A stretch of 64,000 nt of DNA from Gammaproteobacteria bacterium (GTDB lineage Bacteria > Pseudomonadota > Gammaproteobacteria > SZUA-229): the NCBI GenBank assembly GCA_041589455.1, contig JBFHVQ010000003.1:7050-71049 (forward strand), written 5' to 3'. Position numbers and translations under genes: made by a program. Below are positions 2,283 to 59,100 of this stretch, piece after piece. Within the stretch, counting starts at the first letter, position 1. Every line of letters begins with the position of its first letter. The notes under the pieces are model-generated. The model saw only the letters and a list, made by a program, of their open reading frames with translations, did not search any database and was not told the DNA's origin.

Positions 2283-3839
2283 CTAGACAGAAGTTGGTTG
2301 AAGTTTCAGGTGTCGGGGGCGCACCCCTAAAATTAACAGGCTGGCGATGTAAATAATTATCGCAATGACTACAAAGCCGAGCAATGTGGGTACCCGCTGT
2401 AATGCTTCCCAGCTATACCAGCTAGCGATGCCAGGGCTGGTCAAGGCCAGAAAGGCGCTCATAATGATGTTAGCGAGAATGATTTGAGCCCAGAGTTTCC
2501 CCCAGCCAGATCCGCATTGATATATACCCTGTGTCTTGAGTCCCCTATATAGCAGGAAAGCATTCATATACGCTGATGCAGAGGTCGCTAAAGCAAGGCC
2601 AATATGTGGGCCTTCATAGCTCATCCAGACGAGAGGGGCTACAAAAAGCACATTTAGGAACATGTTTGCAATCATGGCCTTAATGCCGATGCGAACAGGG
2701 GTTCTAGTATCCTGTCGAGCATAGTAGCCCGGTGCAAGCACCTTGATATAAATAAATGCTGGTAGTCCAAGTGAGTAGGCCATCAGGCTTAAAGCAGAAA
2801 GCTGGGTATCCTTCATTGAGAATTCGCCGTAGCCAAACAGGGTTGCAAGTAGCGGCCCTGATAACAGTAATAAACCTAGCGCGGCAGGCAGAGCAATCAC
2901 GGAGGTTAGCTTAAGCGCCCAGTCCAGTGTCTCGCTAAACTGCTGTGCTGACTCTTGTGCGTGTTGTCTTGAAAGGCTGGGCAGTATCACGGTTGCCAGT
3001 GCGATGCCAAAAATCCCAAGTGGAAACTCCACCAGGCGATCAGAGTAGTAGAGCCATGAGACGCTACCAGCCACCAGGAATGAGGCGATAATGGTATCGA
3101 ACAGTAGATTGATCTGTGCAACTGATGAGCCAATGATTGCTGGAATCATAAGGTTGCTGATTTTGCGTACACCCGGGTGTGAAGGTTTGAATTTTGGCGT
3201 GGGTAGCAATTTAAGCTTTAACAGGAAAGGGAACTGAAACAGTAGTTGTGCCAGACCAGCGGCGGCCACACCCCAGGCAAGCGCCATAATGGGTTGCTGG
3301 AAGTAATCAGCTCCCCATAAAGCAGCAGTTATCAGGCACAGGTTGAGCAGTACCGGCGTGAAGGCGGGTACTGCAAATTTGCCGAAACTATTGAGTATGC
3401 CGCCTGCAAATGCAGTCAGAGCGATAAAAAATATATAAGGGAAGGTAATTGCTAACAGTTCGGAAGTTAGCTGGAACCGGCTTTCATCGCTAAAACCAGG
3501 AGCGAAAACATAGACCAGTAATGGTGCTGCGAGTGAGCCGATGGCACTAAGAATGAGCAGGAAGCCGCCCAGTGTTCCTGCGACATGATTTAACAGATCT
3601 TTTAGCGCTTCATAGCTGTGTTTTTCTTTATATTCGGCAAAAACTGGAACGAAAGCTTGAGAGAATGCACCTTCGGCAAAAAGTCGGCGCATAAAGTTGG
3701 GGATTTTAAAGGCGACAAAAAAGGCATCGGTACCGCCGCTGGCACCAAAGGTATGGGCAAGTATGATATCACGTAGTAGCCCGAGAACACGCGAAAGCAG
3801 GGTCATCAGACCGACAATGGCCGTGGATTTAAGTAGCAT
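2283..3839 (-). CDS. murJ: Lipid II flippase MurJ (MviN)
   Basis: 518-aa polytopic membrane ORF with the characteristic N-terminus LSRVLGLLRDIILAHTFGASGGTDAFFVAFKIPNFMRRLFAEGAFSQAFVPV. murJ-ribF-ileS synteny. Confidence 0.92.
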   Translation of the reverse strand: MLLKSTAIVGLMTLLSRVLGLLRDIILAHTFGASGGTDAFFVAFKIPNFMRRLFAEGAFSQAFVPVFAEYKEKHSYEALKDLLNHVAGTLGGFLLILSAIGSLAAPLLVYVFAPGFSDESRFQLTSELLAITFPYIFFIALTAFAGGILNSFGKFAVPAFTPVLLNLCLITAALWGADYFQQPIMALAWGVAAAGLAQLLFQFPFLLKLKLLPTPKFKPSHPGVRKISNLMIPAIIGSSVAQINLLFDTIIASFLVAGSVSWLYYSDRLVEFPLGIFGIALATVILPSLSRQHAQESAQQFSETLDWALKLTSVIALPAALGLLLLSGPLLATLFGYGEFSMKDTQLSALSLMAYSLGLPAFIYIKVLAPGYYARQDTRTPVRIGIKAMIANMFLNVLFVAPLVWMSYEGPHIGLALATSASAYMNAFLLYRGLKTQGIYQCGSGWGKLWAQIILANIIMSAFLALTSPGIASWYSWEALQRVPTLLGFVVIAIIIYIASLLILGVRPRHLKLQPTSV

Positions 3840-4718: not shown

Positions 4719-4982
4719 TTGGCTAACTCACCACAAGCAAAAAAACGTGCCCGTCAGGCAGTTAAGCGTCGTGCCCGCAATGTCGGTATGGCATCTATGT
4801 ACCGAACTTTTGTAAAGAAAGTGGTATACGCAATCGAAGCTGGTGATAAAGCCGCTGCAGAGGCTGCATACAAAGCAGCAGTGCCTGTAATCGACAGTGT
4901 TTGCAATAAAGGTCTGGTTCATGCGAACAAGGCTGCACGTCATAAGAGTCGTCTGAACTCTCGAATTCGTGCGATGGCATAA
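4719..4982 (+). CDS. rpsT: 30S ribosomal protein S20
   Basis: Translation ANSPQAKKRARQAVKRRARN...HKSRLNSRIRA. I prefer the in-frame TTG at 4719 to the ORF-track start at 4695, because it gives the usual ~87 aa; E. coli rpsT also starts with UUG. Confidence 0.9.
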   Translation: MANSPQAKKRARQAVKRRARNVGMASMYRTFVKKVVYAIEAGDKAAAEAAYKAAVPVIDSVCNKGLVHANKAARHKSRLNSRIRAMA

Positions 4983-33163: not shown

Positions 33164-35437
33164 TTAGTTGATGAAGTAGCTTTCGATGAGTTTTATTTTG
33201 CTTGCTGCTAGTTCGTTCTTGCCATTGTGTAGTAATTCGCTGGTTTCTGCAGCGATATCGGTGAGGTCTTGATAGCCAAGGCTGCCGCTAATTCCTTTGA
33301 GTTGATGAAGAACGGCATAGGCCTGTTGTAAGTTGTTCTTTTCAAGTGACTGTTTTAGTTCGTCTACGTATATCGGTAATTGTAGTAAGTATTTTTCTTT
33401 TAGATCTCGCAAAATATCATCATGCTGCATGTCGTTAAGAAGTGTCTTTTTCCGTAAATTTAGGGAGTGCGTTTGTGAAGGTTTTTCGGGTTGTGAGTCG
33501 TCAATGGAATTTTCTTGAATTATTTTAGTAACTGCGTTGTTGCCAACGTGTTTCTTGATGCTGTTAACGAGTTCATTAATGTTAATTGGTTTGGTGAGAG
33601 TGTCATTAAAGCCGATTTCCAGGTATTCTCTTTTGTGTTCAGTCAGTGCATCAGCTGTTAATGCAACAACTGGTATTTTATAGTCGTTTGATCGCAGTTC
33701 TTTGATAGCCTGGCTGCCATTCATTATGGGCATTTGAATGTCCATGAGCACCATGTCGTACTGATTGTTGAGTGCAGCTTCTACGCCCTCTTTACCATTA
33801 TTGGCTATGTCTATATCAACGCCATAATCTTCAAGATATGCTTTTACTAGCTGTTGTATTTCGAAGGTGTCTTCAACCAAAAGGATACGTCCAGTAATTG
33901 TAATGTCTGTAAGTGGTTTTTCGAGCTCGGCAATTTCAAGATCTTTTGGTGATATAGCTGTAATGAGATGGTCTTCGTTGGAGTCGTAGTTAGCGCGAAT
34001 CTGACAGGTGAATTGACTGCCAATATCTTTGATGCTTTCTGCGGTGATGTTGCCTCCCATTAATTCAGCAAGGCGTTGGGATATTGTGAGTCCTAGGCCG
34101 GTTCCGCCGAATCGATGAGAGATGGAGGAATCGGCCTGGGAAAATGGTTTAAAAAGATTCAGTTGTTGCTCCAATGTCATGCCAATGCCGGTGTCTTTAA
34201 CTTCAATAGTTAACAGGTCGTCAAGTTCACTATAAGATACATTGATGTCAACTCTACCCTCTTCTGTAAAGCGAATGGCATTACTGGCAAGATTTAGAAT
34301 GATTTGCTTTATTCGTGTTGGGTCGCTGTGTATTTTGCTAGGCAGTGGCAGTGTGTAATTTATATTAAGAAGAATGTTTTTGTTTAATGTTTTTTCGCTT
34401 AATAGCCTGCGAATATGTTCAGTTATTTTAATGATGGATACGGATCTGTTTTCAATTGTTAGTTTGTTGGCTTCGATTTTTGAAAGATCTAGAATGTCAT
34501 TGATGATATGGAGTAGATGATTTCCATTGTGTAAGACAATATCTAGCATGTTGTCCTGATCTTCTTTGCTTTTAGCTTTGTTGTAACGAACGCGTTCTGT
34601 GTAACCTATAATTGATGACAGCGGCGTCCTGATTTCATGGCTCATGTTAGCCAGGAATGCGCTTTTTTGTTGATTGGCTGCTAATGCTTCTTCTCTGTTT
34701 TTAATTTCGTTAATTAAGTCTTTGTTGGCGTGTTGTAATTCAATCTGGTTTAGATTGATGACGTCTAACATTTCATTTAGAAATTTTGAGACAAGGCCAA
34801 ACTCATCTGATCGGTTGCTATCAAGTCGAAGTTTGCTTTCTCCTTTAGAGATGCGTTGAATTCGGGTGATGATTTCATTGAAGGGTTCATGAACGATCTT
34901 TCTGTTGAGCCAGAATAAAAAAATACTGAATAATACGGAAAAGCCAACTATGGCGCTACCAGATTTAACTTGTAGTAATTTCGCACTACGTGAAAGCGAA
35001 GGGAATTCAAAGCTTATCTCGGTGTCGCCATTTGGAATGTTGACTCGTGATGTGATTTGGTAATTGTCTGGGTTAGATGATCCGACTATATAGCTTGTGC
35101 TATTAAGCTCAAACTGTATGTATTCAAGGTTGTTTTGTTTGAGAAAATCAGAAACCATATTGTTTATGGATTCTTCGTCGGCCTGATTCTGTATTAATGT
35201 TTCTATTTGATTTGAAAGCTGTAAGGTTTTCCATGAATATTCTTTTTCAGTGGTCGATTCGAAGGTTGATATGAATGGAACGGTAACAGAAAATGAAAGA
35301 ATAAGTATGATCCACACTGTTACTGCAGTAATTTTTATTGCAATGCTGCCATTCCAGTTGCTGGCCAGGTCTGTTCGTTTCACAGATGAATTCACTATCT
35401 CATTCCTGACCATTTTAGGAACATTGCCATAGGGCAA
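33164..35437 (-). CDS. Hybrid sensor histidine kinase (TM - periplasmic - TM - HAMP - HisKA - HATPase_c - REC - HPt; same domain order as BarA/GacS)
   Basis: 757 aa. H-box [17 protein letters not shown]. HATPase has DTGIGM and GGTGLGLTIS. REC has LLVEDTFEIQ...DMVLMDIQMPIMNG...KP. HPt is LHQLKGISGSLG. Confidence 0.85.
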   Translation of the reverse strand: MPYGNVPKMVRNEIVNSSVKRTDLASNWNGSIAIKITAVTVWIILILSFSVTVPFISTFESTTEKEYSWKTLQLSNQIETLIQNQADEESINNMVSDFLKQNNLEYIQFELNSTSYIVGSSNPDNYQITSRVNIPNGDTEISFEFPSLSRSAKLLQVKSGSAIVGFSVLFSIFLFWLNRKIVHEPFNEIITRIQRISKGESKLRLDSNRSDEFGLVSKFLNEMLDVINLNQIELQHANKDLINEIKNREEALAANQQKSAFLANMSHEIRTPLSSIIGYTERVRYNKAKSKEDQDNMLDIVLHNGNHLLHIINDILDLSKIEANKLTIENRSVSIIKITEHIRRLLSEKTLNKNILLNINYTLPLPSKIHSDPTRIKQIILNLASNAIRFTEEGRVDINVSYSELDDLLTIEVKDTGIGMTLEQQLNLFKPFSQADSSISHRFGGTGLGLTISQRLAELMGGNITAESIKDIGSQFTCQIRANYDSNEDHLITAISPKDLEIAELEKPLTDITITGRILLVEDTFEIQQLVKAYLEDYGVDIDIANNGKEGVEAALNNQYDMVLMDIQMPIMNGSQAIKELRSNDYKIPVVALTADALTEHKREYLEIGFNDTLTKPININELVNSIKKHVGNNAVTKIIQENSIDDSQPEKPSQTHSLNLRKKTLLNDMQHDDILRDLKEKYLLQLPIYVDELKQSLEKNNLQQAYAVLHQLKGISGSLGYQDLTDIAAETSELLHNGKNELAASKIKLIESYFIN

Positions 35438-36075: not shown

Positions 36076-36819
36076 CTATGGTTTTTTGGGTGTTCCAACA
36101 GACATCAGTGGTCGCATTGTGCTTAACAGTGATTTGAATAGTAGCTTGTTCTGTTGCTCTTCGGCAGCCAGTAGTTCTTTCATGTGCTGGCGCTGTGTTG
36201 GCATTGAAAAGCAGGCAGGGCATGAGTCGGGGATTATGGGCAGGCTTTCGTTGATTGCAAAGTCTCGAGTCTGGCGTTCCCTGGCATATACCAGTGGTCG
36301 GATTATGCGTAAATCCCCATTATCATTGACGTAATGCGCTTTCATGGTCTTGAGTTGGCCGCCGTGAAATGCCGACATCAAAAAACTCTCGGCCAGATCA
36401 TCGAGGTGCTGAGCGAGGGCGATGACATTAAAATTATGTTCACGTGCAGTGCTGTACATAATGCCCCGTTTGATACGTGAGCAAAATGCGCAATATGAGG
36501 GCTTGCCCATATGCTCTTTTGCCATATCCATTATGGCTTCGCGACGGTAGTGATACTCTACGCCAAGTGATTCCAGATAAGGAATCATGGGCGAAGGATC
36601 AAAGTCTCCCGCCATTGGGTCTACGGTCATCGCGGCGAATTCAAATTGAATCGGTGCGTGACGTTTAAAGTGGTTGAGAATGTGCAGCAGGGCTAAAGAG
36701 TCCTTGCCTCCTGATAATCCTAATAAGACACGATCGCCTTCGCGGATCATGCTGAAATCCATGAGTGCTCGGCCGGTCTGGCGCAACAGGGTTTTGGGTG
36801 GTTTAATGAATTCGCTCAT
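36076..36819 (-). CDS. ttcA: tRNA 2-thiocytidine(32) synthetase TtcA
   Basis: 247 aa with PP-loop GLSGGKDSLALL and Cys motifs CAFCSRIKRG and CPAC. Confidence 0.9.
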   Translation of the reverse strand: MSEFIKPPKTLLRQTGRALMDFSMIREGDRVLLGLSGGKDSLALLHILNHFKRHAPIQFEFAAMTVDPMAGDFDPSPMIPYLESLGVEYHYRREAIMDMAKEHMGKPSYCAFCSRIKRGIMYSTAREHNFNVIALAQHLDDLAESFLMSAFHGGQLKTMKAHYVNDNGDLRIIRPLVYARERQTRDFAINESLPIIPDSCPACFSMPTQRQHMKELLAAEEQQNKLLFKSLLSTMRPLMSVGTPKKP

Positions 36820-37202
36820 GGGCGCAAAGATACAGGCAAACTGACCGCTTGCAAACCCACTTTAGAGTCGATGGCCTGGTTTTTGTCACGTGTTTCACTT
36901 AATTTGCAGTGTATCCATTGGGCAGGATATTGAAAAACAACAATTTGTCTACTTGCTGTTTTTCATCGGGTAAGGCTTATAGGTTGCTTGCCTGGTGATT
37001 ACGGAGATAAGAGAGGGTTCTAGTGCTATCGCTGTGTGCCTGACAAGCGTCATGTTGAGAATTACTGTTCATTATTCTAATGCGAATAATGAATGGTGTT
37101 TAAGTAATTAACAGAGAGGAGCGGGTATGATTGCTTATTTGGTGTGTGAGCTAAGTTGTTGAGTGACCTAGGATAGTTAATACGTGTATTTTAGACAGAC
37201 AT

Positions 37203-37233
37203 AAAAAAACCCGGCATTCCCTGCCGGGCTTTT
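37203..37233 (-). terminator. Rho-independent terminator of the candidate sRNA (GGA in loop)
   Basis: The minus strand reads AAAAGCCCGGCAGGGAATGCCGGGTTTTTTT: a 7-bp GC-rich stem, a GGGAA loop and a 7-U tail. Confidence 0.8.
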
Positions 37234-37404
37234 GGACATCCCTTGCCCTTGGTGATTGAGTATGGCGTTGTAGCTTAATCCGTTTTTCCATATACTCCTG
37301 TATATAAATCTGATCTTCCGTGGATTCCTTATCCTTGTTTATCCGTTTCAGCTACGTCCTTACGATCCTTGTGTCCCTTTGATGCCATGTCCTGTGTCCA
37401 TGGT
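37203..37404 (-). ncRNA. Candidate CsrA/RsmA-sequestering sRNA (CsrB/RsmY/RsmZ-like)
   Basis: There is no ORF. I count 14 GGA trinucleotides in ~200 nt on the minus strand, several in predicted hairpin loops: CCATG-GACACAGGA-CATGG, TATATAC-AGGA-GTATATG, and ACAAGGAT twice. The 3' end is CCCGGCA-GGGAA-TGCCGGG followed by U7. A -10-like CATAAT lies at 37413-37408. The 5' end is approximate. Confidence 0.65.
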
Positions 37405-37480
37405 TGTATTATGGGTGAGACAATGGGTAAGCTCCATCAGTTGAATCAGTTGCTTTATGTAAGAAAAAGTATCATTGGCT

Positions 37481-37498
37481 TGTAGGGATATCCCTACA
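37481..37498. promoter_or_regulatory. Perfect 18-bp palindrome resembling the GacA/UvrY upstream activating box
   Basis: TGTAGGGATATCCCTACA against the published box TGTAAG-N6-CTTACA matches 5 of 6 positions in each half-site with correct spacing. It is centred ~85 bp upstream of the inferred sRNA start and 23 bp upstream of the divergent pip ATG. Confidence 0.5.
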
Positions 37499-37520
37499 AA
37501 TATGCGAGATCGAGGAGACA

Positions 37521-38471
37521 ATGCCTAGTTTATTTCCACCTGTTAAGCCTTATGTGACTCACCATCTGGAAGTGGATAAGCCACATGTTCTGTATATCGA
37601 AGAGTGCGGAAACCCATCTGGCGTACCGGTTGTTTTTCTTCATGGGGGACCTGGAGCTGGTTGCTCTGGTTATCATCGGCAGTATTTTGATCCAGAGGTT
37701 TACCGGATTATTTTGTTTGATCAGCGTGGCTGTGGAAAATCTCAGCCACATGCAAGTCTCGAAAATAATACCAGCAGGCACCTGGTAGAAGATCTGGAGA
37801 CGATACGTAAGCATCTGAAAATTCATCAATGGGTAGTATTTGGCGGTTCATGGGGCTCGACCCTGGGACTGTTGTATGCTGAAACTTATCCCGATAGCGT
37901 TAGCGGGCTGATTCTAAGAGGGATTTTTTTGGCGAGAGATCGTGATGTCAGCTGGTTTTATCAGGAGGGTGCAAGTCGGCTTTTTCCAGATTACTGGCAG
38001 GCCTTTGTTCAGCCGATTCCGTTGTCACAGCGAGGTAATATGATCGAGGCATATCACCAGATATTAACGGGTGATGATGAGGTGTTGAAGTTGCGGGCAG
38101 CAAAGGCCTGGTCGGTCTGGGAAGGGATGACGGCAACTCTGCAGACAAATGATTCTGTGATAGAAAGCTTTGCTGGATCCCATGCGGCGTTAAGTATCGC
38201 GCGTATTGAGTGTCACTACTTTAAGCATCAGTGTTGGCTAGAGCCAGACCAGCTGGTTCGGGATATTAATAAGATTCGTCATATTCCCGCTTATATTATT
38301 CACGGTCGCTACGATGTTATCTGCCCGGTAGAGCAGGCGTGGGCGCTTTCCAGGGCATGGCCTGAAGCGCAATTGTCGATTATTGCAGATGCGGGTCATG
38401 CCGTCGTAGAGCCGGGGATTACCCAGGCCCTACTCGAAGCAACTCGTGAGATGGCGAGTAGGCTTAGGTGA
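37521..38471 (+). CDS. pip: Prolyl aminopeptidase (proline iminopeptidase)
   Basis: 316-aa alpha/beta hydrolase with HGGPGAG, nucleophile elbow GGSWGS and C-terminal GHA. Confidence 0.9.
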
Positions 38472-38905
38472 TTGCGTTATTGCAAAGAGTAAGCGCTGCA
38501 GGAGTGACAGTGGAAGGGGAGTTTGTTGCGCGAATTGATAAGGGACTTCTGGTTTTGCTGGGTATTGAAAAAGGCGATGATCAGGCGAAGGCAGATAAAT
38601 TGGTGCATCGTATGCTGGGTTATCGGCTCTTTGAAGATGAGCAGGGTAAAATGAACCTGAGCTTGCAGGATATTGGTGGACAGTTATTGCTGGTTCCCCA
38701 GTTTACCCTCGCGGCAGATACGAATCGGGGGATGCGCCCCAGCTTTTCCTCAGCGGCAACACCGCAGCAGGGTGAATTCTGGTTTAACGAGGTAGCGAGG
38801 CAGTGCAGTGAGCAGGTGGAATTGTTGCAACTGGGGCGGTTTGGTGCAGATATGCAGGTTGAGCTGGTTAATGATGGCCCAGTGACTTTTTGGTTGCAGG
38901 TTTAG
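38468..38905 (+). CDS. dtd: D-aminoacyl-tRNA deacylase
   Basis: 145 aa, [17 protein letters not shown]...[14 protein letters not shown]...VNDGPVTF. The GTG start overlaps the pip stop. Confidence 0.92.
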
Positions 38906-56137: not shown

Positions 56138-59100
56138 ATGTATATCTACAATCTTTCTGTTAGAGTTGTTTTTGTCCTGTTTTTCACGCTCGCAGCAGTA
56201 AGTTGCGGTGGTGGTGGAGGCAGTAGCGGCAGTAAAGACAGTGGCGGCGGAGACGGATCGGATGATACGGAGCTTGTGACCGGACAGTTTATCGATGCCG
56301 CGGTTGAAGGTCTGGAATACCAGTGTTCTACAGGTGAATTTAGCGTCAACCGGGGAACGACCAACAGCAACGGGGAATTCACTTGCCCTCAAGGAGATTC
56401 TGTTACCTTCTACCTGGGGCATATCCAGCTGGGGACGGTAGCCGCGGATGGTGCAGTGGTCACGCCTTACAATCTGTATCCAGGGGATGGCCAGTCAGCA
56501 ATTAATCTTTCTAGGATTTTGCAGTCGATAGATGTTGATGGCGATGTCAGTAATGGTATTACTGTTAATGATGCATTGGTCAATAGCATTCCCGCAGATG
56601 CTGACATGTCCAGCACAAATTTTGGGGATTACATCACTAGTACAACCTCTATTACGCTCGTTACAGAAGCGCAAGCTCAAGCGCATTTAAATCAAACGAT
56701 TATTGAATCGATTGCTCCAACAACAGCACCGGTTGCTAACGCAGGTGCCGATCAGACTGCTTTTATTGGCAATACGATCATTCTGGATGGATCAGCATCC
56801 AGCGATGCTGATGGGGATTCATTACAATATACCTGGTCCTGGTATCGTAAACCTGTTGGCAGCACTGCAGAGTTTCTGAGTCAAGGAGGTGATGGCAACA
56901 GTTTTGTCGCTGATGTTTCTGGTTTGTACACGGTTAGTCTCTGGGTTTTTGATGGTCATGTGACTGTTTTTGATCGTGTAAACATTACCGTAAATATCGA
57001 ACCTGACCGCGGTGATGCCAGCCTGTCTTCGTTGATACTTTCCTCCGGCGAATTCAGTCCCGAATTCGATCAGGCCACTTATGTTTATAGTGCTGAATTC
57101 GCCAACAATGTAAGTTCAATCACGATCACTGCTATTAGCTCACAGCCTGGTGTTGCACTCTTAATGAATGGTGATTCTATTGTGAGTGGCGAAGAGAGTG
57201 CTTCAATTCCTCTATCCGTTGGAAGTAATACCATTGAAATTGAATCTACAGCACTTGATGGTATGACGACTCGTACGTACGTGATTACGGTTACACGCCT
57301 CGCGAATTCAAATCAGACACCCGTTGCGGATGCAGGCGATGATCAGGTCGTGACGTCTGGAGTACAGGTTAATCTTGATGGTTCCGGTAGTAGTGATAGT
57401 GATGGCGACAATCTGACCTATTCGTGGAGTTTTGTTTCGATGCCAGGTTCGAGCAACGCAGTTTTATCCAGCAGTAGTGGTGTCTCACCATCATTCTTAG
57501 CAGATCTCGGTGGTATCTATACCTTGCAATTGATTGTATATGATGGACAGGCCAATAGTGCTCCTGATCAGGTGGCCATCACGGCAACCAGTGTTCCGGT
57601 TGCCAATGCCGGTCCTGATCAGACTCTTCAGGCTGGTAGTGTTGTTTACCTTGATGGCAGCGGTAGTAGTGACAGTGATGGTGATAATCTGACTTATTCG
57701 TGGAGCTTTCTTTCTGTTCCTCAATCAAGCAGCGCTGTATTGTCAGACAGCAGCAGTGCTACGCCAAACTTTACTACCGACCTCAGTGGTAACTATGAGG
57801 TTCAATTGATTGTTAACGATGGCCAGAGTGACAGCGTTGCGGACATTGTTATCATCCTTGCCGAAGAATTGTCATCAGGATGGATGCACCCACTCAGCGA
57901 AGATAGCCATATTAGTGTTGCTGGCGCCTCAGGTATTTTGCAAACAGCAGTGAATAATCAGGGTCAGGCCATCGCAGCCTGGACTACTGGTGATGGCGGC
58001 ACGGATTGCGGAGGATATGAATGCGCCCAGGTATTTGTCAGTCTTCACGACAATGGTAGCTGGACCCAAATTGCAGGCCTTAGTGACAACATCAGTCCCG
58101 ATGGCTTTAATGCCAGCGATGTAAGGGTGGCAATAGATGATACCGGCGACGCCATCGTTGTATGGCGAATGAATACTGCCTGGAACTCATTATGCGGTTC
58201 TTACACGTCGCAATGTAGTCACATCTATATGAGTGAGTACCGTGATGGCTCCTGGTCGCACCCAGTTGATATGAATGATCATATTGATCCCAGTCGAGTG
58301 AATAACGTTTCACAGAGGCCCAGGGTGGCAATGGCTGATAATGGTGAAGCCGTCATCGTATGGCAATCTCAGTCAACCTCGGATGTCGGTAATATTGGTA
58401 TCTATAAAAAAGAATATCGCAACGGTAGCTGGACACAGCCAGCGACAACCGATTTTATACCGAAATCATACTGGAATCCCGAAGTAGCCATGGATGACAG
58501 CGGCAATACCCTTATTGTCTGGCAGTCCAGTGATAGTAATTATCATAGCCGCTTATACCTAAGTGAATATCGTGGTGGTACCTGGAGTCATCCGAGTGAT
58601 CTGGATGCCGATGCCTTCAATCCTCCTGGTCAGGTCTGTCCGGGAATAACCTGCCCGATTCCAGTTAACATTGCCATGGACAACAACGGAAATGCCATCA
58701 TTGTCTGGGATCAGCGTACCACGACTTATGCAGACTACTACGATGGTGCAATCTACAGGAGTGAGTACCGCAACGGTAGCTGGACACATCCTGCAAACGT
58801 CAACGACACTGTTAACTCAGGTGAAATGACCGACTGGGCCCGTTACCCTGAGGTCGCCATGGATAACAATGGCAATGCGTTGATTGTCTGGGCACAGAAC
58901 GACGATACACTCGATTGTATGGTTTCACCTCCCAATGTATATGGTTCATTTGAATGGCCTTGCCAGCAGATTTTTGTGAGTGAATTCCGCGATGGCAGCT
59001 GGACCGAACCGCTGAACAAGTCCGACCATATCAGTCTTCCCGGTCAGCCTGCACACGCTATGCGTAGTAGTACTATCAAGTCCTACTCGGTGGCCATGAG

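Follow-up and report, generated by a model that had tools for sequence, protein, structure and literature searches.

The sponge RNAs of the Csr/Rsm systems are the output of a global switch of the Gac/BarA type, which governs carbon storage, motility, biofilm formation and secondary metabolism. To our knowledge, what is known of them comes almost entirely from cultured Enterobacteria, Vibrio, Pseudomonas, Legionella and a few others, since their sequences diverge too fast for homology search. We analyzed a candidate of this class in a stretch of 64,000 nucleotides from a gammaproteobacterial contig (JBFHVQ010000003.1), called the window in the following. An earlier note, made from the letters of this stretch, had proposed an unannotated GGA-rich small RNA (sRNA) gene of the CsrB/RsmY/RsmZ type on the minus strand upstream of pip. 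This reading is supported by 22 homologous sequences, by the conservation of promoter, upstream box and terminator, and by the presence of the same box before other GGA-rich RNAs. We put the probability that the locus represents a new lineage-specific sequence family of CsrA/RsmA sponge sRNAs under Gac-type control at roughly 0.7. Judged by its sequence the sRNA belongs to no described RNA family; the functional class to which it would belong is well known.

In the proposed mechanism the many A(N)GGA sites in loops and linkers of the sRNA would bind CsrA/RsmA dimers, and CsrA would be titrated off the ribosome-binding sites of messenger RNAs, as CsrB/CsrC and RsmX/Y/Z do. Transcription of the sRNA would be switched on by a phosphorylated regulator of the GacA/UvrY type (NarL family) bound to a palindrome at about -88, with an extra contact at about -60. 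For this locus we infer CsrA as the ligand and a GacA orthologue as the reader of the box. Criteria for sRNAs that regulate CsrA were defined by Kulkarni et al. 2006, who require a CsrA homologue in the genome (PMC1488887). A literature search for Csr/Rsm sRNAs in Thiotrichales, Beggiatoa, Thiothrix or Methylococcales returned nothing.

The locus lies between an open reading frame (ORF) for a TtcA-like protein (36076-36819, minus strand) and pip (37521-38471, plus strand). Read along the minus strand, this gap contains a palindrome, 17 nt, the hexamer CTTACA, a conserved stretch, the hexamer CATAAT, a purine-rich body of about 200 nt and a terminator. The predicted transcript of about 200 nt (37203-37403, minus strand) has its 5' end derived from the position of the -10 element and its 3' end set at the T-run of the terminator; it folds at -54 kcal/mol with z = -4.9 relative to shuffled sequences. 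The minus strand carries 14 GGA trinucleotides between 37203 and 37410 (208 nt), whereas 2.1 are expected from the window-wide GGA rate. Dinucleotide shuffles of the segment contained 7.5 +/- 1.7 GGA, and 14 were reached in one of 5000 shuffles, which bears out the enrichment claimed in the earlier note. The segment also shows the highest GGA density per 200 nt on either strand of the whole window. The next densest stretch (11 GGA at 56249, plus strand) was considered as a sibling sRNA and rejected, as it is glycine-rich coding sequence. With 7.0 GGA per 100 nt the predicted sRNA compares to 6.0 in E. coli CsrB. The A(N)GGA context, noticed before for many of the motifs, extends to all 14, each of which reads AGGA or A-N-GGA. 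The consensus for CsrA obtained by SELEX is RUACARGGAUGU, with ACA and GGA 100% conserved (PMC7652899), and several sites of the sRNA match this pattern by reading ACA-N-GGA.

Scanning a genome collection for Pip yielded 80 loci from uncultured Gammaproteobacteria, with the closest Pip proteins showing 70-75% identity. Among the closest loci, L005 belongs to the genome JBFHWF01, L004 to JAPHSS01, L007 to DATCTK01 and L002 to JBFHVK01. Nine of the 80 loci have their highest GGA density upstream of pip, on the strand opposite to it, and the same nine align with the window from the palindrome through the terminator. Another 15 homologues came from metagenomes that were scanned for the promoter signature, and the run SRR29257444 holds a copy identical to the window's. 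The final alignment holds 22 distinct sequences from metagenome-assembled genomes and metagenomes that are 57-90% identical to the window. Thirteen of the 14 GGA sites are retained in at least 20 of the 22 homologues, whose bodies carry 13-15 A(N)GGA motifs. At position -2 of each GGA nearly all of the 22 sequences have an A, while at position -1 all four letters occur at most sites. Since GGA and the A at -2 are kept and the base in between is free, selection acts on A-N-GGA as such. In the set of nine sequences 32 of 39 GGA columns were invariant in comparison to 60 of 142 other columns (Fisher p = 9e-6). Between L018 and the window the RNA is 76% identical in nucleotides and Pip 63% in amino acids, so that by this comparison conservation is higher in the RNA than in the neighboring protein.

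As had been described, the element is closed by a strong intrinsic terminator with GGGAA in its loop (AGGGAAU; 37205-37233, minus strand). The terminator has a 12-bp stem including six G-C pairs and a run of seven T at 37209-37203. Its helix is 100% paired in the 22 sequences with compensatory changes at three pairs, and the GGA in its loop is present in all 22. The aligned homologues carry indels of 1-2 nt and early stops; in L003 a stop lies five codons after the ATG of a 46-amino-acid frame of the window, and most homologues have no open frame of 66 or more amino acids in the GGA-dense stretch. The gene following the terminator varies between loci, with no TtcA-like gene present in L003, L004, L006 and L008. 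Indels and stops, the variable downstream gene and the three compensatory pairs of the terminator together argue that a small ORF or a leader can be excluded. The comparative data thus give well-supported evidence for an independent, conserved sRNA gene on the minus strand, although the transcript itself is a prediction.

The promoter region is conserved as well. The perfect 18-bp palindrome TGTAGGGATATCCCTACA (TGTAGG-GATATC-CCTACA, 37481-37498) is centred at about -88. The published GacA site, TGTAAG-N6-CTTACA, is located at -75 (rsmY) and -196 (rsmZ) in P. aeruginosa (PMC4950607, PMC4353343), and the box described here falls inside this range (PMC4950607). It agrees with the GacA site at five of six bases per half-site (10 of 12 in total) and has the same N6 spacing, as the earlier note had stated. 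The palindrome is unique in the window even when three mismatches are allowed (0.04 chance matches expected), and no second copy marking a sibling sRNA was found in the 64 kb at this limit. The homologues keep both half-sites unchanged but differ in the 6 bp between them, and in more distant relatives each side of the box may read either TGTAGG or the canonical TGTAAG. Invariant half-sites, a variable centre and the toggling between TGTAGG and TGTAAG point to a protein-binding DNA site and not to an RNA stem.

The -10 element CATAAT (37408-37413, minus strand), which had also been recognised before, is found in all homologues as CATAAT or CATACT. From the box centre to the first base of the -10 element the distance is 75-76 nt in 22 of 23 loci, with a partly variable intervening sequence. 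In the 23 loci the divergent start codon or neighboring ORF lies 4-186 nt from the box. Exactly 17 nt downstream of the palindrome lies an extra half-site, CTTACA (37458-37463, minus strand; CTKACA in relatives). This gap of 17 nt is kept in 22 of 23 homologues and also in pip-linked loci that cannot be aligned. The positions of the box at -88 and of the extra half-site near -60 assume that transcription starts about 7 nt past the -10 element. Between extra half-site and -10 sits a conserved promoter block with the consensus AAGCACCTGAATCnnCTGATAGC (37431-37457, minus strand), a group of nearly invariant columns between two variable stretches. The pip-linked promoters that cannot be aligned carry a GATA(G/C/T)C element at an equal distance, which matched no known factor site; inspection of the block by eye gave no convincing match to sigma-54, sigma-32, sigma-28 or IHF motifs. 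No usable -35 is present at the sRNA promoter, as expected for an activator-dependent promoter.

We assessed the structure of the RNA by folding and by comparison of the homologues. A long-range helix, P1, would pair GACAUGGC (37384-37391, minus strand) with GCCAUACUC (GCCAUAnUC, 37258-37266, minus strand). In the 22 sequences 99.4% of the P1 cells of the alignment are paired, and an A-U pair is swapped to U-A in four. P1 uses the 3' arm of a rival local hairpin, CCAUG...CAUGG, which is predicted for the window sequence alone, is broken in five of 22 homologues and is 86% paired; where this hairpin breaks, a compensatory change keeps P1. The comparative data therefore favour the predicted long-range helix, and of the two hairpins that had been drawn by hand in the earlier note CCATG[GACACAGGA]CATGG is less supported than P1. 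The other, UAUAUAC[AGGA]GUAUAUG (37289-37306, minus strand), is supported; it presents its loop GGA with an unpaired probability of 1.0, and in divergent homologues its stem is swapped for GUAC/GUAC, GCAC/GUGC or AUAC/GUAU. A further hairpin, GGAU[AAGGA]AUCC (37322-37334, minus strand), carries a GGA in its pentaloop with an unpaired probability of 0.99, and its helix is 86% paired across homologues. Both GGA-loop hairpins sit within a central GGA-rich domain enclosed by helix P2, which is formed by GUAGC (37351-37355, minus strand) and GCUAC (37270-37274, minus strand). Although P2 is 100% paired, it is nearly invariant, and the comparison speaks neither for nor against it. Most helices are too conserved for a covariation test, with compensatory changes confined to P1 (one pair), hairpin 3 and the terminator.

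The box module is found beyond the family. Among the loci of the genome collection GTARG-N6-CYTAC lies directly upstream of pip in 25 of 27 occurrences, and linkage to pip was seen in 32 of 121 metagenome matches. An nhmmer search with the family profile missed the pip-linked RNAs of L020, L023, L024, L028, L031, L032 and of the L050 type; as far as alignment goes, such unalignable RNAs are positional counterparts and not demonstrable homologues. Many of the boxes upstream of pip stand before such RNAs, which share one arrangement: after the box come 17 nt, CTKACA, a stretch of about 45 nt and a -10 element (often TATACT), then the body, about 150-400 nt long, and a terminator. The number of GGA is 2-4 in the L050 type, 7-8 in L024, L028 and L031, and 12-17 in L128, L020 and L032. 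GGA-rich terminated RNAs behind box and half-site are found next to pip in L020, L023, L032 and L128. In other contexts the module drives such RNAs in L180, where it lies between ppx and ssb, and in L129 and L134; across the box-driven unalignable RNAs of both settings the GGA-rich ones contain 3-17 GGA. In L108 pip has been lost, and the module persists together with a family member beside dtd. In the loci fetched for this analysis (about 1.5 Mb) nearly all GGA-dense stretches without an open frame have the box upstream. L072 shows a stretch with 11 GGA and open frames of at most 39 codons (3150-3350, plus strand), located about 650-850 nt upstream of pip on the strand of pip and lacking a box.

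The pip-linked RNAs differ considerably in their bodies. The RNA of L032 (3461-3870, minus strand) is about 400 nt long, carries at least 17 GGA and contains two to three tandem units of 84 nt with 88-94% identity, a putative example of a sponge-like RNA growing through internal tandem duplication. A type of about 150 nt with few GGA lies on the strand opposite to pip, about 150-250 nt upstream of it, in L044, L050-L053, L056, L058, L059 and L071, as well as in the metagenome loci L093, L101, L102, L105, L106, L122, L158, L170 and L202. These low-GGA counterparts have 2-4 GGA, mostly as CAGGGA, and a conserved CU-rich stretch, UUUUUCUCUCCUCGAG, that resembles an anti-Shine-Dalgarno sequence. 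They may represent a different functional type at the pip-linked site. The RNA of L031 weakly resembles the Rfam family anti-hemB (25 bits, E = 0.12) and a betaproteobacterial toxic sRNA.

In 20 of the 121 metagenome matches (L086, L087, L097, L117, L121, L139, L140, L146, L149-L151, L153, L166, L171, L179, L182, L183, L189, L194 and L198) the exact module TGTAGG-N6-CCTACA-N17-CTKACA also precedes response-regulator receiver genes, at a distance of 19-244 nt. The encoded proteins are mostly stand-alone receivers of 120-145 amino acids, and the three that were run through Pfam matched Response_reg only; the contigs span 37-70% G+C. On these contigs CTKACA could serve as a -35 element, which would place the box at about -61.5. 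The arrangement suggests an autoregulated NarL/GacA-like circuit using the same site in other lineages. L151 and L189 show two further CTTACA half-sites in a 23-bp register. Two copies of the module are present on one 8.9-kb contig (L160, 969-1009 on the plus strand and 4825-4865 on the minus strand) and another in L112 (1204-1244). Here it is embedded in conserved sequence that extends further, GCAAAGGYCTCYTTGTAGGGATT..., and has an extended -10-like TGATAAGAT or TGATAATAT and then a protein-coding gene behind it. These copies are a promoter cassette that recurs in an unrelated organism of low G+C.

We compared the window, 11 related loci and further counterparts to Rfam and obtained no match at gathering score for the locus or its relatives. 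That the models for CsrB, CsrC, RsmX, RsmY and RsmZ would miss the locus had been predicted. The window reached 13.1 bits with RsmY (RF00195; E = 0.37-1.3, gathering score 57), and CsrB/RsmB (RF00018), CsrC (RF00084), PrrB_RsmZ (RF00166) and RsmX gave no match in the window at E <= 10. Below threshold, RsmY scored 18.1 bits in L103 and 26.0 bits in L023 (E = 0.016), and the best CsrB score among the homologues was 25.4 bits in L193 (E = 0.003, gathering score 71). The CsrB/Rsm clan CL00106 was the sole group to recur among sub-threshold matches, which counts in favor of the sponge reading. Matches to the rnk leader, FsrA, sraA, STnc430 and others were discarded, most of them aligning to the terminator only.

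Several results weigh against a CsrA sponge under Gac-type control. We searched for csrA and gacA by motif scan, by tblastn using the CsrA of E. coli and the RsmA of P. aeruginosa, and by Pfam on all ORFs of 186-244 amino acids: csrA was absent from the 64-kb window and from the fetched loci, gacA/uvrY was found in neither, and the window encodes no NarL-type regulator. No Csr/Rsm model of Rfam comes near its gathering score. The single deviation of the half-sites from the GacA site (A to G, TGTAGG instead of TGTAAG) is symmetric, occurring in both. The module before receiver genes implies that another NarL-family regulator may read the box, and some of the pip-linked counterparts have just 2-4 GGA and a CU-rich stretch. 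The most conserved stretch of the sRNA, UCAAUCACC, lacks GGA, and the sponge model does not account for it. How far the GGA motifs are exposed upon folding had been named as a check in the earlier note; the predicted exposure is unremarkable, and we do not count it as evidence. In partition-function folding the mean unpaired probability of GGA was 0.56 as compared to 0.54 +/- 0.09 in shuffles, and eight of 14 sites exceeded 0.5, no more than in shuffles. Whether folded with or without the conserved helices, the sRNA was not distinguished from shuffles, whereas the control, E. coli CsrB, reached 0.80 vs 0.54 +/- 0.06 in its own shuffles. Three GGA do lie in hairpin loops with an unpaired probability of about 1, where shuffles have 0.65 +/- 0.77 and 2% of them reach three, and only two of 14 GGA fall inside conserved helices. 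Accepted members of the class are similar in this respect, with three of seven GGA exposed in RsmW and at least three in RsmX-2 (PMC4950607, PMC7911923).

Some of these points lead to other explanations of the locus. It is very improbable that no sRNA gene exists here and that the region is a small coding gene, a cis-acting leader of the TtcA-like gene or a GGA-rich spacer by chance. Two short ORFs overlap the segment (37151-37291, 46 amino acids; 37360-37521, 53 amino acids) and the TtcA-like gene follows 385 nt downstream on the same strand, but the disrupted and short frames of the homologues, the exchange of the downstream gene, the strong covarying terminator that closes the element and the conservation of the RNA above the flanking protein in L018 are all at odds with this. 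A quite unlikely alternative, which has more in its favor, is a trans-acting sRNA that works mainly or additionally by base pairing. CUCAAUCACCA, an invariant GGA-free and single-stranded stretch directly before the terminator, would then be the seed for pairing with target messenger RNAs, and the GGA motifs would be secondary, as in McaS and similar sRNAs, which act by base pairing and also bind CsrA. The seed would belong to the most conserved GGA-free stretch, GCUACAACGCCAUACUCAAUCACCA (37250-37274, minus strand), which is partly made up of helix strands and partly single-stranded. Within it UCAAUCACC is nearly invariant in the 22 homologues, adjoins the terminator and lies outside the strongest helices. 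A site beside the terminator is typical of seeds or Hfq-binding modules. The CU-rich, anti-Shine-Dalgarno-like stretch of the counterparts with few GGA and the weak likeness of the L031 RNA to anti-hemB fit this explanation too, and base-pairing sRNAs with two or more GGA are known binders of CsrA (PMC7652899). The helices P1 and P2, however, account for part of the conserved block, and 14 selectively conserved A(N)GGA motifs far exceed what such an sRNA would need. A candidate target was seen in dtd, the second gene of the conserved neighboring pair pip-dtd: ACUCAAUCACC from the conserved block could pair with the region of the dtd GUG start (38467-38477, plus strand) at 10 of 11 positions. 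This complementarity stays within chance, with three matches in the window vs 1.25 expected and 12% of shuffles doing equally well. An RNAduplex scan against 44 translation-start regions predicted unrealistically long duplexes and no gene start stood out.

The remaining explanation leaves the sRNA as it is and concerns its control. The palindrome might be the operator of another NarL/LuxR-family or other dimeric regulator, possibly acting on pip-dtd, with the sRNA outside of a Gac-type cascade; we consider this unlikely. It would account for the deviation of both half-sites from the canonical box, for the occurrence of the identical module before the 20 stand-alone receiver genes and other coding genes on unrelated contigs, and for the absence of a third half-site at E. 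coli csrB. In most loci the box is located only 4-60 nt from the divergent start codon, overlapping a possible promoter or 5' untranslated region of pip, and its linkage to pip in the genome collection and the metagenomes given above could be read in the same way. The spacing, however, is fixed to the -10 element of the sRNA and variable to pip, and box and sRNA persist where pip is missing (L108) or where the context is ppx/ssb (L180). From the fixed spacing and the persistence without pip we argue that the box serves the sRNA. GacA-type boxes are known to vary between lineages. The canonical TGTAAG half-site is used interchangeably with the variant in relatives, and nearly all GGA-dense non-ORF stretches of the fetched loci are preceded by the box. 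Of the readings considered, a sponge sRNA under Gac-type control has the best support.

A wider reading, which we offer tentatively and hold to be less likely than not, regards the pip/dtd-linked site as an old slot for sRNAs that many uncultured Gammaproteobacteria have in common, in which the promoter module is fixed and the body has been repeatedly rebuilt. The fixed module would consist of TGTAGG-N6-CCTACA, 17 nt, CTKACA, about 45 nt and the -10 element, and the bodies would range from about 150 nt with 2-4 GGA and a CU-rich stretch over the 200-nt form with 14 GGA to the repeat-built form of about 400 nt. A subfamily of GacA-related regulators would read the module and would use it elsewhere in a class-I-like geometry before genes for stand-alone receivers. 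If this were true, the module could serve as a cis-signature for finding Csr/Rsm-type sRNAs and the regulon of their regulator in metagenomes.

The neighboring genes were examined as well. The earlier note had placed the locus in a 700-bp gap between ttcA and pip. The gap is indeed 701 bp long and Pip is confirmed by a match to TIGR01249 (416 bits), but the 247-amino-acid product of 36076-36819 scores 221 bits against an NCBIfam cut-off of 272 for TtcA and, on this score, is better regarded as a TtcA-like PP-loop ATPase than as TtcA proper. With 87-91% identity in L005, L007 and L018 the protein is far better conserved than Pip. Between the palindrome and the start codon of pip (37481-37520, plus strand) there are only 22 nt, which include the Shine-Dalgarno sequence GAGGAG, and a scan detected no sigma-70-like promoter for pip. 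Either transcription of pip may start within or upstream of the sRNA promoter region, or pip may be co-regulated via the box. In the former case the palindrome would form a perfect hairpin in the 5' untranslated region of pip.

At 33164-35437 on the minus strand, 1.8 kb downstream of the sRNA, a hybrid kinase of 757 amino acids is encoded with HAMP, HisKA, HATPase_c, REC and Hpt domains. This domain order is that of the tripartite kinases BarA/GacS, and the best NCBIfam match is BarA with 359 bits vs a cut-off of 890. Synteny of the kinase was seen only in the closest relative, L005. As a link between a Gac system and the sRNA the kinase is only a hint.

The analysis provides an alignment of 22 sequences and a partial structure for a candidate new family in uncultured sediment and sand-filter Gammaproteobacteria that are labelled as Thiotrichaceae or are related to them. 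It also provides a sharper promoter signature (box, phased half-site and fixed spacing) that finds further candidates in metagenomes, and a worked example of size change and body turnover of an RNA at a conserved site. Local peculiarities, as read from the alignment, are the symmetric variant of the box, the phased third half-site and the predicted long-range closing helix. Specialists would expect such RNAs in these lineages, so the surprise is modest, and the understanding of the Csr/Rsm system is unchanged by the find.

In comparison to known systems, the predicted sRNA is close to RsmX/Y/Z of Pseudomonas in its general design. Like these it would be small, intergenic and independently transcribed (about 110-130 nt there, about 200 nt predicted here), with numerous A(N)GGA motifs placed in hairpin loops and in linkers, among them one in the terminator loop, and it shares their fast sequence evolution at a conserved position. 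Both have an 18-bp palindromic upstream activating sequence in a 6+6+6 layout before a promoter with a poor -35 (PMC4950607). Unlike RsmX/Y/Z the sRNA is longer and denser in GGA (14 sites), and the two show no significant match in sequence or structure. The half-sites read TGTAGG/CCTACA instead of TGTAAG/CTTACA, an extra CTKACA at a fixed gap of 17 nt and a long-range closing helix are added, and the gene is oriented divergently from pip-dtd.

With CsrB/CsrC of Enterobacteria and CsrB1-3 of Vibrio the sRNA shares a comparable GGA density, a rho-independent terminator and an inverted repeat of the UvrY/GacA type upstream. The relative in L032, which grew to about 400 nt via its tandem GGA-bearing unit of 84 nt, recalls the repeat-built CsrB. 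The sRNA of the window is about half as long as CsrB, however, and the GGA motifs of CsrB are predicted to be far more exposed (0.80 vs 0.56). At E. coli csrB the box is located at -183, a third half-site is absent and IHF acts between box and promoter (PMC7652899). As regards the class of CsrA-regulating sRNAs as a whole, the box is a variant with respect to the weight matrices by which that class was defined (PMC1488887). Four of its five sequence features were found at the locus, namely an intergenic position with its own -10 and terminator, a concentration of AGGA/ARGGA, a rho-independent terminator and a conserved upstream site, and the fifth, GGA motifs in loops or free regions, was found in part.

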